Source: an uncultured Chloroflexia bacterium (GTDB lineage: Bacteria > Chloroflexota > Limnocylindria > Limnocylindrales > CSP1-4). Taken from it: 64,000 nt of DNA. The stretch covers positions 1,120,001 through 1,184,000 of the forward strand of contig CAVVCZ010000004.1 of the NCBI GenBank assembly GCA_963746845.1, written 5' to 3'. Made by a program: the position numbers and the translations under genes. The first letter of the stretch is position 1. Every line of letters begins with the position of its first letter. The notes under the pieces were generated by a model. That model did no database searches and was not told the DNA's origin. It saw nothing but the letters and a program-made list of their open reading frames with translations. Of this stretch, positions 16,144 through 22,764 are shown one piece after another.

Positions 16144-16218
16144 TGGCTCCGGCGGTAGGATTCGAACCTACGACCAAGCGGTTAACAGCCGCCCGCTCTA
16201 CCACTGAGCTACGCCGGA
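16144..16218 (-). tRNA. tRNA-Asn (GTT)
   Basis: Reverse complement TCCGGCGTAGCTCAGTGGTAGAGC GGGCGG CTGTTAA CCGCTT GGTC GTAGGTTCGAATCCTAC CGCCGGAG CCA; full cloverleaf with encoded CCA. Confidence 0.97.
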
Positions 16219-16362
16219 GCGAGGGCCGACCGATCTCGGCGGTTGGTCGGCGCGCGGCCGCACCGGGGCGCGGACCGGGCGACAGGATACCAGACGTCCT
16301 TCGCCCGGCTCGACGGGCAGTTCCGGCGGGGATTCGACCTCCGGATCGGCGACGATGGTCCG

Positions 16363-17166
16363 GTGATCCAGTTGACCCAGATCGCGCGCCGAGGGCGCAG
16401 CCCCGACTCGGCCGCCTTCCCGTTCGGTGTCCCGGCGATCGCGACCCTGCCGACCGTCGTCCTCGATCGGCCGGTCACGATCCTCGTCGGGGAGAACGGG
16501 TCCGGGAAGTCGACGCTCCTCGAGGCGCTGGCCATCGCGGCCCGCGCGACGACGGCCGGGACGACCGACGCCGCCGACGACACGACCCTGGCCGGCGTCC
16601 GGGCGCTCGCGGACGACCTCCGCCTGTCGTGGTCGACGCGCCGCCATCGCGGCTTCTTCCTCCGCGCCGAGGATTTCTTCGGGTTCGCCCGTCGGATCGC
16701 GGCCATGCGCGCGGATCTCGAGGCCGGGGTGGCGACGGTCGAGGCCGAGTTCGCCGACCGCGACGCCTACGCGCGCGGGCTCGCGCTGTCGCCGTACCTC
16801 AAGGAGCTCGGCGAGCTTCGGCGTCGATACGGTGACGGGATCGACACGCAGTCCCACGGCGAGGCGTTCCTCGCCTTCTTCCGCGACCGGTTCGTCCCCG
16901 GCGGGATCTACTTCCTCGACGAGCCGGAGGCGCCCCTGTCGCCGTTCCGCCAGCTGGCGTTCCTGGCCCTGGTCCGTGAGGCGGTCGCCGCCGACTGCCA
17001 GATCGTCATGGCGACCCACTCGCCGATCCTGCTGGCCTGTCCCGATGCGGCGATCTGGTCGTTCGACACCGCCCCGATCGGGCGTGTCGCGTACGAGGAC
17101 CTCGAGCACGTGACGCTGACCCGGGACTTCCTGAACGACCCGGACGCGTTCGTGCGGCATCTCTGA
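16363..17166 (+). CDS. Predicted ABC/AAA-type ATPase (COG3910-like)
   Basis: FPFGVPAI, GENGSGKST, GFFLRAE, SHGE, LDEPEAPLSP, ATHSPILL motifs. Confidence 0.88.
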   Translation: MIQLTQIARRGRSPDSAAFPFGVPAIATLPTVVLDRPVTILVGENGSGKSTLLEALAIAARATTAGTTDAADDTTLAGVRALADDLRLSWSTRRHRGFFLRAEDFFGFARRIAAMRADLEAGVATVEAEFADRDAYARGLALSPYLKELGELRRRYGDGIDTQSHGEAFLAFFRDRFVPGGIYFLDEPEAPLSPFRQLAFLALVREAVAADCQIVMATHSPILLACPDAAIWSFDTAPIGRVAYEDLEHVTLTRDFLNDPDAFVRHL

Positions 17167-17183: not shown

Positions 17184-18092
17184 GTGCCTGCCGCTGGTTC
17201 CGCCGCCCGTCCATCTGCGCGCCCGAGCCCGTTGATCTCCGCCGACGAGCTGCTCGGGCTGCTGTCCGGGGACCCCGATCACGTCCGGATCGTCGACTGC
17301 CGCTGGTATCTCGGTCGGCCGGGCGACGGGCGGGCGGCCTGGGCGGCTGGACATCTGCCCGGGTCGATCCATCTCGACCTCGACGACGACCTCGCGGACC
17401 TCGCGGGGTTCGGGGCTCCGGGCCGGCATCCCCTCCCCTCGCCCTCGGCATTCGCGACCCGGCTGGGTCGGGCGGGCATCGGCGACGAGCACCTGGTCGT
17501 CGCGTATGACGACGTCGGCGGCTGGGTCGCGGCGCGGCTCTGGTGGATGCTCGACACCATGGGGCACCGGGAGGTCGCGGTCCTCGACGGCGGCATCGAG
17601 GCGTGGACGGCGGCGGGCGGTGCGCTCACGACGCGCGATCCGGTCCTGCCGGCGGCGTCGCTCCACCTCGCCGACGCGTGGTCCGGCGTGATCTCGCGCG
17701 AGGAGCTGAAGGCGCGGCTGGGCTCGGTCGTGCTGCTCGACGCCCGCGCCGCCCCGCGGTATCGCGGCGAGACCGAGCCGATCGACCCCGTCGCGGGCCA
17801 CATCCCGACCGCCCGGAACGCCCCGGTCGACGGGAACCTGGTGGACGGCCACTTCCGTCCGGCCGCGGAGCTCGCGGAGCGGTTCCGCGCTCTCCGGGCC
17901 GACGGGTCGGAGGGCGAGGTCGTGACCTCGTGCGGAAGCGGGACATCCGCGCTCCACCACGCGATCGCGATGCGGCTCGCGGGCCTGCCGGACCCGATCC
18001 TGTATGTGGGCTCCTACAGCGACTGGTCCCGCTCGGGCGAACCGGTCGCCACGGGCCCGGAGCCCGGTGAGCCCCCGCGAACCGCCGGATAA
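17184..18092 (+). CDS. Sulfurtransferase (two-domain rhodanese, SseA-like)
   Basis: GHLPG, GRHPLP, AARLWW, LDGG, GHIP, active-site SCGSG, YVGSYSDW. Confidence 0.92.
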   Translation: MPAAGSAARPSARPSPLISADELLGLLSGDPDHVRIVDCRWYLGRPGDGRAAWAAGHLPGSIHLDLDDDLADLAGFGAPGRHPLPSPSAFATRLGRAGIGDEHLVVAYDDVGGWVAARLWWMLDTMGHREVAVLDGGIEAWTAAGGALTTRDPVLPAASLHLADAWSGVISREELKARLGSVVLLDARAAPRYRGETEPIDPVAGHIPTARNAPVDGNLVDGHFRPAAELAERFRALRADGSEGEVVTSCGSGTSALHHAIAMRLAGLPDPILYVGSYSDWSRSGEPVATGPEPGEPPRTAG

Positions 18093-18115: not shown

Positions 18116-18769
18116 ATGGCGACCAGACGGAGACCCGCGGACATCGGGATCGAACGTGGCAGATTCCTCCTCGGCGGTCTGACCCGCGAGGAGACCCTCG
18201 CCCGGCGCGACCGCGGACTCACGATCGCCGACGTAACTCGGGCGATTGGCCTGTCTCCGTCCATGGGCAGCCGGATCGAGCGCGGTCGTGTTCCCGATGT
18301 CGGGATCGTCCGGTTGTCGGCCATGCTTGCCGTCGTCGGCCTGGAGCTCTCTGCACGGGCGTTTCCGGGCGGCTCACCGATGCGTGACGCAGCCCACGCG
18401 TCGTTGTTGACTCGATTCCGGGCGTCCCTTCATCCGGGCATCCGATGGAGCCTGGAGGTTCCGCTGCCGGGACGCGGCGACCAGCGGGCCTGGGACGGGC
18501 TGATCCGCGGCGATGGTTGGATGTACGGCATCGAGGCCGAGACGCACCCCACCGACGCGCAGGCCCTCCTGAGGAGGGTCGAGCTCAAGGTCCGCGACAG
18601 CGGGATCGACGGCGCCTTCCTCGTGGTCCCGCCGACCCGCCACGTCCGCGCTTTCCTCGCGGCCGCCGGCGACGTCCTCGAGCCAGCCTTCCCGGTGCCC
18701 GGACGGCGTGCTGTCGAGCTGCTCCGGGCGGGGGTGAACCCTGCTGGCGGGGCGGTCGTCGTGATCTGA
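18116..18769 (+). CDS. XRE-type HTH protein with C-terminal PD-(D/E)XK-like (restriction endonuclease-fold) domain
   Basis: RRDRGLTIADVTRAIGLSPSMGSRIERG HTH; C-terminal EVPL...RAWDGLI......GIEAET...RR..LK pattern. The nuclease-fold assignment is inference. Confidence 0.7.
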   Translation: MATRRRPADIGIERGRFLLGGLTREETLARRDRGLTIADVTRAIGLSPSMGSRIERGRVPDVGIVRLSAMLAVVGLELSARAFPGGSPMRDAAHASLLTRFRASLHPGIRWSLEVPLPGRGDQRAWDGLIRGDGWMYGIEAETHPTDAQALLRRVELKVRDSGIDGAFLVVPPTRHVRAFLAAAGDVLEPAFPVPGRRAVELLRAGVNPAGGAVVVI

Positions 18770-18781
18770 GGACGGTCGCGG

Positions 18782-18976
18782 CGTTTGCATCCCATGCACA
18801 CGTCGGTGGCCGGACTCCCCGGCGCCCTCATCGCCCGGCCCGATCGTTGCGTGGGGCGAACGAACCCGACCGAATTCGCGGCGAACCCACGGCACGCGTC
18901 GGCATCGTGCATCGGTAGCACGTCCAGTTGCGGGCTAGCGGCTCCGGCCCCCGACGTTTGCACCTGGTGCATGCGT
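18782..18976. repeat. Series of 3-4 short palindromes (CGT..TGCA-N5-TGCA..CG) downstream of the HTH gene
   Basis: cgtttgcatcccatgcacacg (18782-18802), degenerate cgttgcgtggggcgaacg (18845-18862), cgtgcatcggtagcacg (18906-18922), acgtttgcacctggtgcatgcgt (18954-18976). Confidence 0.6.
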
Positions 18977-19043
18977 AACCGGCGGCGCGCCGCGGGGCGA
19001 CGCCCGGCACCGGCGCCGCACTACCGCGGCTGCGGCGGGGACC

Positions 19044-20780
<1,737 letters not shown>

Positions 20781-20856
20781 CAGTGCCCTCCAGGTTCGAG
20801 GTTGAGAAGGAACGTCGTGGAGAAGAGACGATCACTGCGTTCGTCGCGCATGGATG

Positions 20857-22764
20857 TCATGCACGCACGAGGACGGTTGCCTGTTCGATCTGGCGATCGA
20901 CGGCCCGTCGTGATTCGTTGGTCTGACGCTGGAGATCGAGCAGACGGGTCACGTTCTCGCGATCGCCACGGCCCTCGGCCGAGAGGATCTCGGCGGCGAC
21001 CCAGTCGGCCCGCTCGTCGAGCCGGAGACGCTCGAGGCGCATCAGGCAGCGGTCGACCGCATAGGTGATCCGGTCCGCCCCGATGACGCCGAGGTCCGGC
21101 GACGGGCGGGCGAGGATCGCCTGGGCGAGGGCGCGGATCTCGTCGTCCAGGCCGGCCATCAATGCCGACATCGAGAACGGCGGATGGATGCCCTGGTCGT
21201 TCGAATCGCGCTGGAGGACGATCGCCCGGTACAGCTCCCGGGCCGGGGTCGACGGCAGCTGGTCGGGACCGAGCTCGTCGGCGACGCGGAGCTGCTGGTC
21301 CGGGACGAGCAGGATCAGGCGGAGCAGCTCCTCCTCGACGGGCGTGATCGCCGCGAGGATCCGGTCGACCGGGAGCGCGTCCGCAGCGCCGATGACCGCG
21401 TCGGCGGTGATCCGGCCCTGGACGGCGGCGGCCTGCGGGCTCCGGTGCAGAACCTCGAGCACCGACCGCTCCTCCACCCCGGACACGCGGTGGATCGTCT
21501 GGAGGTACGCGTCGCGCATCACCGGGTTCGGGATGGCCCGGAGCGTCGGCACGATCGCGTCGACGAAGCGGGCCTTGCCGCCGGGCGTCTTCAGGTCGAC
21601 GGCGCGGGCGTGCTGGTCGATCAGGTAGTCGACGATCGGCTGGGCCGTCCGGACCTCCTCGCGCCACCGGTCGGGTGTCTCGCGCAGGACCTCGTCGGGG
21701 TCCTTGCCGTCCGGCAGCCGGACCACCCGGACCTCGTCGAGCTCGACCCCCGTGTCGGCGGCGGCCAGTTGCGGAATGATCGACTCCAGGGCGTTGACCC
21801 CGAAGGTGCCCGCCTTCTCGCCGGCGGCATCGACGTCGTACGCCAGCGCGATCTTCTTCGCGTACCGCGTGATCACGGCGACCTGGCCGGGCGTCAGCGC
21901 CGTGCCGAGCGACGCGACGACGTTGTCGAAGCCGACCTGGTGGGCCATCAGCGCGTCCGTGTAGCCCTCGACGATCACCGCCTGGTTGGTCTTCCGCATC
22001 GGTCCCTTCGCGCGGTCGATCAGGTATAGCGTCCGGCTCTTGTCGAAGAGCGGCGTCGCGGGCGAGTTCAGGTACTTCGGGCCATGATCGCGGCCGTCGT
22101 CGGCCGACGCGAGGATCCGGCCACCGAGCCCGACGGCGGAGCCGTTCATGTCCCGGATCGGGAAGATCACCCGCTCGCGGAAGCGGTCGTAGACACCGCC
22201 GCGCGCCGACTGGCGCGGCTGGGCGAGACCCGCCTCGACCAGGTCATCCGCGCCGATCTGTCGCTTCGTCGCGAGCGTCCGCGCGAGAGTGTCCCAGCCG
22301 CCGGGCGCGTAGCCGAGCTGATGGGTCGTGATCGTGTCGTCCGTGAACCCGCGGCCACGGAGATAGTCGAGCGCCTCCTGACCCGCCTTCGAGCCGGTCA
22401 GGACCGCGTGATAGAAGGCGATCGCCGACTCCATGACCGTGCGGAGCCGCGCCCGCCGGGCGTCCTCGCGCGTCGTCCGCTCGTCGAGCTCGACGCCGGC
22501 CTTGGCGGCGAGGACCTTGAGCGCCTCCGGGAAGGTCAGCGAGTCGCGCTTCATGACGAAGTTGAAGACGTCGCCGCCCTCGCCGCAGCCGAAGCACTTC
22601 CACGACTCCCGGGCCGGGGTCACCGTGAACGACGGGGTCTTCTCGCCGTGGAACGGGCAGAGGCCCTTGTAGGTCGAGCCCGCCTTCTTCAGCTGGACCG
22701 TCTCGCCGACAACGTCGACGACGCTCAGCTTGCTCTTGATCTCGGCGGTGACCCCGACCGACAA
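20857..22764 (-). CDS. dnaG: DNA primase
   Basis: CPFHGEKTPSF..CFGC zinc finger, DRFRER..FPI, PKYLNSP, EGY.D, TOPRIM YDVDAAG, KDPDE; TTG start after AGGAGG. Confidence 0.98.
   Translation of the reverse strand: MSVGVTAEIKSKLSVVDVVGETVQLKKAGSTYKGLCPFHGEKTPSFTVTPARESWKCFGCGEGGDVFNFVMKRDSLTFPEALKVLAAKAGVELDERTTREDARRARLRTVMESAIAFYHAVLTGSKAGQEALDYLRGRGFTDDTITTHQLGYAPGGWDTLARTLATKRQIGADDLVEAGLAQPRQSARGGVYDRFRERVIFPIRDMNGSAVGLGGRILASADDGRDHGPKYLNSPATPLFDKSRTLYLIDRAKGPMRKTNQAVIVEGYTDALMAHQVGFDNVVASLGTALTPGQVAVITRYAKKIALAYDVDAAGEKAGTFGVNALESIIPQLAAADTGVELDEVRVVRLPDGKDPDEVLRETPDRWREEVRTAQPIVDYLIDQHARAVDLKTPGGKARFVDAIVPTLRAIPNPVMRDAYLQTIHRVSGVEERSVLEVLHRSPQAAAVQGRITADAVIGAADALPVDRILAAITPVEEELLRLILLVPDQQLRVADELGPDQLPSTPARELYRAIVLQRDSNDQGIHPPFSMSALMAGLDDEIRALAQAILARPSPDLGVIGADRITYAVDRCLMRLERLRLDERADWVAAEILSAEGRGDRENVTRLLDLQRQTNESRRAVDRQIEQATVLVRA

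Follow-up and report, generated by a model that had tools for sequence, protein, structure and literature searches.

Within the 64-kb stretch of DNA analysed here (the window; contig CAVVCZ010000004.1 of an uncultured Chloroflexia bacterium), a 217-amino acid (aa) open reading frame (ORF) encodes an XRE-type helix-turn-helix (HTH) protein with a C-terminal domain resembling PD-(D/E)XK nucleases, and is followed by a short array of palindromes in the spacer that separates it from rpoD. Sequence comparison of homologous loci revealed the association of gene and sites, a recurrent spacing plan for these sites, and a set of conserved residues in the protein. This gene-plus-sites unit is a recurrent one in related soil and freshwater bacteria. 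In the reading that we prefer, and which we hold with about even confidence, protein and palindromes are cognate partners, in that phased dimers would form a complex of ~220 bp tethering the nuclease domains, and would so constitute a DNA-processing or DNA-blocking device.

The spacer between the 217-aa gene and rpoD measures 274 nt, and its first palindrome starts at position 18782, 13 nt past the stop codon of the gene. The palindromes of the window conform to the pattern kTGCAY-N3-RTGCAm, the form of the lineage being kTGCRY-N3-RYGCAm. The window as a whole contains two copies of the core TGCAYNNNRTGCA, at 18786 and 18959, both of them located at the array, as compared to a mean of 0.09 copies over 100 dinucleotide shuffles, none of which reached two. 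The individual sites, designated S1 to S5, are listed in Table 1 with the surrounding features. The S2 position is not called at a tolerance of two mismatches, while S4 with its left flank constitutes a 29-nt inverted copy of S1 with its right flank (pair I1, 79% complementary). It is uncertain whether the GC-only palindrome at the S5 position is a member of the array. The window array is a partly decayed copy, in which S1 and S4 are good, S3 is weak and S2 is degenerate. A further copy of the core with one mismatch, TGGATGTCATGCA, overlaps the dnaG stop codon upstream of rpoD (20851-20863); it is probably due to chance, since the background density of 0.048 per kb predicts approximately three such matches in 64 kb.

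Table 1. Coordinates of the gene, its domains, the palindromic sites and the neighbouring genes in the window.
Feature	Position	Strand	Basis or remark
Rhodanese (sulfurtransferase) gene	17184..18092	+	Upstream neighbour, 23 nt before the 217-aa ORF
XRE-HTH / PD-(D/E)XK-like protein gene	18116..18769 (stop included)	+	217-aa ORF and its translation
XRE-type HTH domain, residues 29-78	18200..18349	+	Pfam HTH_31, E 6.8e-6; Foldseek matches
C-terminal PD-(D/E)XK-like domain, residues 85-217	18368..18766	+	Domain model, PDB fold matches, invariant E114, D127, E140, E142
Site S1, 15-bp palindrome TTGCAT-CCC-ATGCAC	18785..18799	.	Exact core; 0 mismatches; best flank architecture score starts here
S2 position, degenerate	18847..18861	.	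Left half TTGCGT retained, right half gone; 62 nt from S1, as in homologous arrays
Site S3, weak, GTGCAT-CGG-TAGCAC	18907..18921	.	2 mismatches (core copy at 18908); 122 nt from S1, 51 before S4
Site S4, 15-bp palindrome TTGCAC-CTG-GTGCAT	18958..18972	.	Exact core; called with 1 mismatch
S5 position, GC-only palindrome CGCCGC-GGG-GCGACG	18988..19002	.	30-nt offset from S4 fits homologues; half-site differs
rpoD	19044..20780	-	Convergent with the 217-aa ORF (3' ends face)
dnaG	20857..22764	-	Precedes rpoD

A first-pass annotation of this DNA had drawn attention to the ORF, its XRE-type HTH and its position between the sulfurtransferase gene and the 3' end of rpoD, to its preference for A/T-ending codons relative to its neighbours, and to the residues E-V-P, W-D-x-L-I and I-E-A-E. 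All of these are present: the HTH is matched by Pfam, the residues are found in the translation (the second motif as W-D-G-L-I), and the G+C content at third codon positions (GC3) is 0.82, as against 0.90-0.95 in four real neighbouring genes of the window. The same annotation correctly placed the start of the palindromes 13 nt after the stop, and counted three clear copies and one degenerate copy. Copies 1 and 4 (S1 and S4) carry the exact core, copy 3 (S3) has two mismatches, and copy 2 is reduced to one half-site. The centres that it assigned (18792, 18853, 18914 and 18965) coincide with the S1-S4 plan that was found independently in the homologous loci.

Homologous loci were collected by one scan of species-representative genomes, which yielded 336 confirmed relatives, and the best 79 loci (numbered with the prefix L) were kept; these derive mostly from Chloroflexota metagenome-assembled genomes (MAGs) labelled Limnocylindria/Limnocylindrales. 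Across these loci there were 35 exact matches to the core within the first 700 nt of downstream sequence (0.664 per kb) and seven within the nearest 450 nt of upstream sequence (0.203 per kb); the core was absent from the gene itself and was encountered once in 441 kb of far flanks (0.002 per kb). The density in the gene flanks is more than 300-fold above that of more distant DNA. At least one exact core is present in a flank of 20 of the 79 loci, and 29 possess at least two sites at no more than one mismatch, the chance expectation per locus being ~0.003 at background density. Two or more sites were observed in 16 of 41 loci with a convergent rpoD, in one of nine with rpoD upstream and in one of seven with rhodanese only. 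Since they were also observed in 11 of the 22 loci lacking both rpoD and rhodanese within ~4 kb, the sites go with the 217-aa-type gene and not with rpoD. Indeed, where genes are inserted between array and rpoD, the array remains beside the HTH-nuclease gene (e.g., L005, L006, L008 and L043). The proposal that gene and array form a unit, made from the window in the first-pass annotation, is thereby borne out.

The arrays follow the recurrent plan S1-62-S2-61-S3-51-S4-30-S5, with spacings near multiples of ~10.2 bp, i.e., on a single helical face. The distances between neighbouring sites group around 30, 51, 61-62, 71-73, 92-94 and ~112 nt. The sequence 61/62-61-51/52-29/30 was observed in eight loci (L006, L007, L008, L026, L031, L045, L046 and L047), with close variants, such as 62-51-51-30, 62-71-51-30 and 61-71-50, in approximately 11 more. 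The window, with S1 at 18785, S3 at 18907 and S4 at 18958 (122, then 51 nt) and a degenerate S2 at 18847, fits this plan. A motif-free test, in which palindromicity was summed over the five plan offsets (maximum 30), returned scores of at least 24 in eight of 80 loci and at least 23 in 12, the maximum in the far flanks being 23 over 646,200 positions. The window scored 22, borderline against this background, with its peak exactly at S1; the array of the window is regarded as real because of its motif count and its match to the architecture of the homologues, and not because of palindromicity alone.

When the arrays are stacked, the DNA between the sites is without conservation, save for weak position-specific flanks ('...cGACG' after S1 and 'GGAA.CGAC' after S5). 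The half-sites themselves vary by lineage while the plan is constant: TTGCRY, GTGCRY, GCGCAT, TTCCGY, TTTCAC, GCCCGC and CTGCAT were all observed, with GCGCAT-N3-ATGCGC, TTCCGY-N3-RCGGAA, TTTCAC-N3-GTGAAA and GCCCGC-N3-GCGGGC as examples of full palindromes. Position 5 of the half-site is A or G and varies even inside arrays, and TGCAC and TGCGY sites therefore represent one class and not two. A tabulation of recognition helices against the differing palindromes gave no clean rule, and we do not claim co-variation. Bases shared within arrays, lineage-specific sequence, unconserved spacers of fixed length and helical phasing together point to a protein that reads double-stranded DNA on one face, and away from RNA hairpins. 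Among the three options that the first-pass annotation had offered for the palindromes (HTH binding sites, processing or insertion sites, and repeats of a structured RNA), HTH binding sites are the best-supported.

Some arrays are extended beyond S5 by tandem units of 61 or 72-73 nt with near-identical flanks (L026, 4988-5075; L031, 5199-5358; L047, 5043-5118), which suggests local duplication of sites. Other repeat types were also observed near the gene. The downstream regions of L010, L012 and L015 (e.g., L015, 2463-2560) share a conserved block, '..tccgacggtcggatcgtgcat..', in which asymmetric GTGCATYTGRCG units replace clean palindromes, and for which no Rfam family was found. Downstream of the gene in L012 (4700-4830) lie about five 16-nt tandem units, 'gccttgcggccgcggt', and upstream of the gene in L065 (3558-3630) are four GC palindromes at 19-nt spacing.

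The protein is an XRE-family HTH protein, its HTH being of the Cro/C1 type. The match of the window protein to Pfam HTH_31 (26.7 bits) just misses the cut-off of 27 bits, which other members of the family exceed (e.g., 47.5 bits), and NCBIfam returned a weak HipB-type HTH match and nothing else. Foldseek matches of the HTH part include the solved XRE proteins ClgR, HipB, DdrO and C.Esp1396I. Structure modelling of the full-length protein gave a predicted local distance difference test score (pLDDT) of 86.9, and a homodimer was predicted with a score of 0.83, as compared to 0.00 for the best of three controls; contact agreement between runs was at least 80% and partner pLDDT at least 82. Of proteins solved as one-chain pairs, 20 of 30 attained the mark set for this score, as against one of 23 solved as single chains. 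The predicted interface (residues 6-29 and 60-86) is formed by the HTH domain together with helix 7-32 and the segment 60-86 that follows the HTH, and excludes the nuclease domain. Many XRE-HTH proteins have been solved as dimers. Since the solved fold matches of the protein include XRE-HTH proteins, some of them in multi-chain entries, the favourable dimer prediction may reflect likeness to such dimers.

The C-terminal domain, modelled alone (pLDDT 91.0; predicted template modelling score 0.85), displays the order α-β-β-β-α-β (H8-19, E26-32, E41-47, E52-57, H64-78 and E82-87), and its classifiable fold matches in the PDB are all PD-(D/E)XK proteins: AF1548, NucS/EndoMS, OkrAI (3odh), BamHI (3bam/2bam), Hjc and McrC, and further Bax1, Can2, the R2 endonuclease domain, XisH, YaeQ and SfsA. 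The domain is thus predicted to possess the PD-(D/E)XK core fold. In the model, D127 is located on strand 2 and E140-x-E142 on strand 3, forming a motif D...E-x-E that places Glu at the classical Lys position. BamHI displays the same D...E-x-E pattern, with Glu replacing Lys. No variation was seen at E114, D127, E140 or E142 across 38 full-length and 46 domain sequences, nor at other polar residues including D122, R124, D147, Q149 and D161; K158, in the next helix, is invariant in the full-length set and nearly so in the domain set. Almost all invariant columns of the C-terminal domain are charged or polar, and they include what would be the complete acidic cluster of a nuclease active site. 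The restriction-endonuclease-like fold with Glu for Lys that had been suspected from the residue pattern is, accordingly, also what the model and its fold matches indicate.

A search of a large protein collection returned 251 homologues (E ≤ 1e-3), the matches listed being 52-78% identical; nearly all of the 120 listed are ~217 aa in length, and the few named sources among them are Chloroflexota or Gaiellaceae MAGs. A profile search with the C-terminal domain identified 1150 cluster representatives (E ≤ 1e-3), and in the best 150 of these both domain position and architecture are identical to those of the window protein. Longer forms of the family possess no added domain, with the exception of one probable chimera. 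Pfam matched only HTH families in the window protein, assigned no family to the C-terminal domain, and found nothing recurrent over all 46 domain sequences; PADLOC gave nothing meaningful for the protein, and a PDB sequence-profile search with the domain returned chance matches only (E 0.2). A protein atlas yielded solely unnamed Chloroflexota clusters, probably of the same family. With ~1150 representatives and no Pfam family, the C-terminal domain could be defined as a family in its own right.

The unit is mostly syntenic (rhodanese-gene-rpoD) and is not accompanied by an obvious mobile element. Most loci place the gene between rhodanese and the 3' terminus of rpoD; rpoD itself could be identified in 50 of 79 loci, usually in convergent orientation, and rpoD-linked copies are distributed across the whole tree. 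In nine loci, most of them in one clade, rpoD lies upstream on the same strand. Pfam scans of 50 neighbouring ORFs (~4 kb on each side) revealed metabolic, housekeeping or family-less products, and no integrase, transposase, partition ATPase, methyltransferase or transfer gene among them; the 'selfish' label attached to the locus in the first-pass annotation is, in this light, a weak one. No homologue of the C-terminal domain was found on plasmids or phages: none of 83 plasmid matches covers 80% of the query, the 20 listed being confined to the HTH or the stretch immediately after it (query residues 12-126), and no phage matched. The window contains one copy of the gene. Upstream of the rhodanese gene, a tRNA-Asn gene (16144-16218, minus strand) adjoins the gene of a 307-aa AAA_21/AbiEii-like ATPase (16243-17166, plus strand); a tRNA is syntenic upstream of rhodanese in 11 of the 18 relatives scanned with Rfam. 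A replication origin or terminus at the locus was rejected on the basis that GC skew does not switch there.

In L060 (35-1214) and L061 (3660-4856), the gene is bracketed by direct repeats of array stretches of 82-182 nt, the repeats being 93% and 82% identical and 1029-1030 and 968 bp apart, respectively; the orientation of the gene with respect to rpoD and rhodanese is reversed in L061, and in L079 related site triplets lie on either side of the gene. L016 and L006 are two gene copies on one contig, 24 kb apart; one neighbours rhodanese and the other is on the side of rpoD. Of the ~23-kb interval between them, the visible ends code for a dihydroxyacetone kinase, a short-chain dehydrogenase, a hydrolase and a GH9 fragment; a mobility gene was not seen there. 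Paralogous copies with their own sites occupy unrelated contexts. Across 378 pairs, identity of the HTH-nuclease protein tracks that of DnaG poorly (Spearman 0.19): window and L053 share 85% identity in DnaG and 47% in the HTH-nuclease protein, with differing palindromes, and L046 and L022 share 86% and 46%. In 76 of 76 loci the gene has a lower GC3 than its neighbours (mean difference 0.083; neighbours pre-filtered for high GC3). Incongruence with DnaG and low GC3 are compatible with fast divergence, with old paralogy and differential loss, and with cassette exchange, and leave some room for the last of these.

In the mechanism that we favour, two XRE domains would dimerise via the N-terminal helix and the post-HTH segment, and the dimer would read one 15-bp palindrome. 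With four to five sites beside the gene, ~62, 61, 51 and 30 bp apart, the dimers would occupy the same face of the helix, since the spacings are near multiples of ~10.2 bp, and could jointly assemble a single higher-order nucleoprotein complex of ~220 bp. As the PD-(D/E)XK domains lie outside the predicted dimer interface and retain an invariant acidic cluster, such a complex may hold them over the array DNA, comparable to a MOBC relaxase, whose nuclease is tethered by an HTH at the origin of transfer (oriT), or to a type IIS enzyme, whose nuclease is tethered by a recognition domain. The result would be a locus-specific device for processing or blocking DNA, most likely by nicking or cutting the array, or DNA adjacent to it, in a regulated manner. 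We infer binding of the protein to these sites, cooperation between them, and catalytic action of the nuclease domain on this DNA. Processing is preferred to pure repression, by a small margin, in view of the invariance of the catalytic-type residues and of the usual position of the array, downstream of the gene and between convergent genes.

Several observations weigh against this proposal. Fifty of the 79 loci carry fewer than two TGCA-type sites, and the clade with rpoD upstream retains just 0-2 palindromes between rpoD and the gene start; the full array is, therefore, dispensable for retention of the gene. Only two of the four to five positions in the window are good sites. The array sites were called with a half-site picked per locus post hoc, at up to two mismatches in 12 positions, and the resultant length of 0.79 obtained for 72 adjacent spacings at a period of 10.2 bp has its significance inflated by the kinship of the loci. 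The fold matches of the C-terminal domain are weak (best E 1.2e-3, none ≤1e-3; template modelling scores 0.40-0.55), and the classical Lys is absent. In seven paralogous or inverted loci (L001, L051, L062, L069, L072, L017 and L019) one to two sites lie 60-160 nt upstream of the start, an arrangement that looks like plain autoregulation. Finally, a nuclease that cuts its own chromosome would need control, and none can be pointed to.

Alternatively, the protein could be an ordinary XRE transcription factor, its palindromes being operators for autoregulation or for a roadblock between convergent genes, and its nuclease-like domain serving to oligomerise or to sense a ligand without cutting. This is a real contender, if the less probable one. 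Most XRE proteins are repressors, the sites upstream of the start in several loci and the missing Lys are as expected of it, and a roadblock could be of help where promoter and terminator scans of the window array region found nothing and no intrinsic terminator-like site was detected between the gene and rpoD. However, the commonest place of the array is downstream, between convergent 3' ends, which is not where an operator affects initiation; no conserved promoter-like sequence exists between the sites, and the invariant charged or polar columns with a full acidic set would be unexpected for a mere scaffold. That the palindromes instead act at the level of RNA, whether as hairpins that terminate or stabilise transcripts or as part of a structured non-coding RNA from the 3' region of rpoD or of the gene, with a coincidental link to the protein, is very improbable. 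Every site is able to form a short hairpin and hairpins are common in convergent intergenic regions such as this one, yet the region 18770-19043 folds no better than its shuffles (z 0.24 on the plus strand and 0.85 on the minus strand). Rfam reported no family in the window array region, and across 18 loci just the syntenic tRNA, on which basis a known structured RNA was rejected, and terminator-like sites are lacking. Furthermore, sites within an array share specific bases beyond what pairing demands, quantisation of spacing at ~10.2 bp is a property of double-stranded DNA, and the sites stay with the gene when rpoD is missing. The structured-RNA option of the first-pass annotation is not supported, in view of the folding and Rfam results and of the lack of conservation between sites.

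A further possibility is a unit that moves or is exchanged as a cassette (similar to a relaxase with its oriT, similar to a homing element, or serving as an integration site), with the nuclease initiating transfer or gene conversion at the array. Such a cassette would agree with the poor tracking of DnaG, exemplified by the two mismatched pairs, with GC3 values below those of the (pre-filtered) neighbours, with paralogues that carry their own sites in unrelated contexts, with array stretches directly repeated around the gene in L060 and L061, and with the copies L016 and L006 that bracket an island. MOBC relaxases, moreover, combine a winged HTH with a PD-(D/E)XK domain, and TraX binds five repeats 70-120 bp from nic (PMC12857230). 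We nevertheless consider a cassette quite unlikely: rhodanese-rpoD synteny holds in most loci and rpoD-linked copies are found all over the tree; the 50 neighbour ORFs include no integrase, transposase, coupling protein or secretion gene; plasmids and phages yielded no homologue of the C-terminal domain in the searches above; and comparison with a TraX-like alignment profile gave a probability of 2.6%. The incongruent tree could, besides, be accounted for by ancient duplication and differential loss.

Whichever of these applies, the unit is small and self-contained, comprising one 217-aa protein and ~220 bp of DNA, and is directly testable in vitro. It could show how a phased higher-order complex arises from a simple HTH dimer and a nuclease fold, and its natural cases of changing site sequence under fixed geometry are useful for the study of co-evolution in protein-DNA specificity. 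If the nuclease is active, the unit would represent a conserved programmed DNA lesion by the main sigma-factor operon of a widespread class of uncultured bacteria; if the protein is only a repressor, it would be a modest curiosity, an operator array downstream of its own gene. In its boldest form, which we regard as unlikely, the proposal is of a vertically inherited chromosomal DNA-processing system of an undescribed kind, where an XRE-tethered nuclease, assembled on a five-site phased pad next to its own gene, makes a programmed nick or break. This would start transfer, local replication, or recombination/allele exchange of the cassette at a fixed chromosomal point, following a logic like that of a relaxase at oriT or of a homing enzyme yet without sequence relationship to either, and the specificity of the protein would change along with the sequence of the sites from lineage to lineage.

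Comparison with known systems leaves several resemblances that are partial. REP/RAYT systems (repetitive extragenic palindromes with their associated tyrosine transposases), the analogy drawn in the first-pass annotation, also pair a nuclease-type gene with short flanking palindromes, which lie on both sides of the gene in L060, L061 and L079; the analogy does not hold, since only HTH families and no HUH/Y1 transposase domain were found with Pfam, and the palindromes are undispersed (two cores in 64 kb, one per 441 kb of far flank) and fixed in spacing. A CRISPR (clustered regularly interspaced short palindromic repeats) array was likewise rejected, as that annotation had already done: the repeats are 15-bp palindromes on a 62-61-51-30 plan fixed across lineages, and the neighbours are rhodanese, rpoD, dnaG and metabolic genes, with no cas gene among them. 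XRE repressors (CI/Cro-type, the C-proteins of restriction-modification systems, and HipB) share with the window protein the XRE fold matches, the predicted dimer and 15-bp palindromes beside their own gene. In contrast to these, the array here is usually downstream, comprises four to seven sites over more than 200 bp at a fixed, helically phased spacing, and accompanies an effector domain that is predicted to be a nuclease fold with an intact acidic site.

Among restriction enzymes, BamHI and OkrAI are recovered as PD-(D/E)XK fold matches and have palindromic targets, BamHI also sharing the acidic D...E-x-E pattern with Glu for Lys. In FokI, a separate recognition domain tethers the cleavage domain, and the window protein may resemble type IIS enzymes of this kind in that arrangement. 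It differs from type II and type IIS enzymes in that recognition is by an XRE HTH, that no methyltransferase lies near the HTH-nuclease gene, and that the recognisable sites cluster beside its own gene and not over foreign DNA. Type II restriction-modification was rejected, as no methyltransferase was found among the window neighbours or the 50 ORFs in relatives.

By analogy, the system closest in logic is that of the MOBC relaxases and their oriT (TraX of pAD1 and MobC of CloDF13; Pfam Replic_Relax). According to the review PMC12857230, MOBC relaxases possess a PD-(D/E)XK catalytic domain, and TraX carries an N-terminal winged HTH, binds five direct repeats located 70-120 bp from nic, and forms no covalent intermediate. 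Like the window protein, TraX has an N-terminal HTH-type domain before a PD-(D/E)XK domain, and it binds five repeats near its own gene and acts at a distance; in addition, the conserved core of the TraX-like family of pTEF1 also contains E-x-E. The relaxase HTH is winged and that of the window protein XRE-type, and the TraX sites are direct repeats as opposed to palindromes; the window family, moreover, occupies a chromosomal syntenic locus with no coupling protein or secretion genes in the 50 ORFs scanned. As a reference, the replication-relaxation protein of pTEF1 (Pfam Replic_Relax, E 2e-6) was aligned with 23 relatives, and hhalign against this 24-sequence alignment returned probabilities of 2.6% (domain) and 1.1% (full length); Pfam and NCBIfam gave no relaxase match at E ≤ 1, and the CloDF13 ORFs gave no Pfam match. 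Membership of the MOBC relaxases was rejected, there being no detectable similarity by hhalign, Pfam or NCBIfam, and no plasmid or transfer context in the ORFs scanned. Our literature searches found no description of the protein family or of the array, and the gene-plus-sites unit appears to be an undescribed one, in which a nuclease fold tethered by an HTH is paired with its cognate, repeated sites.

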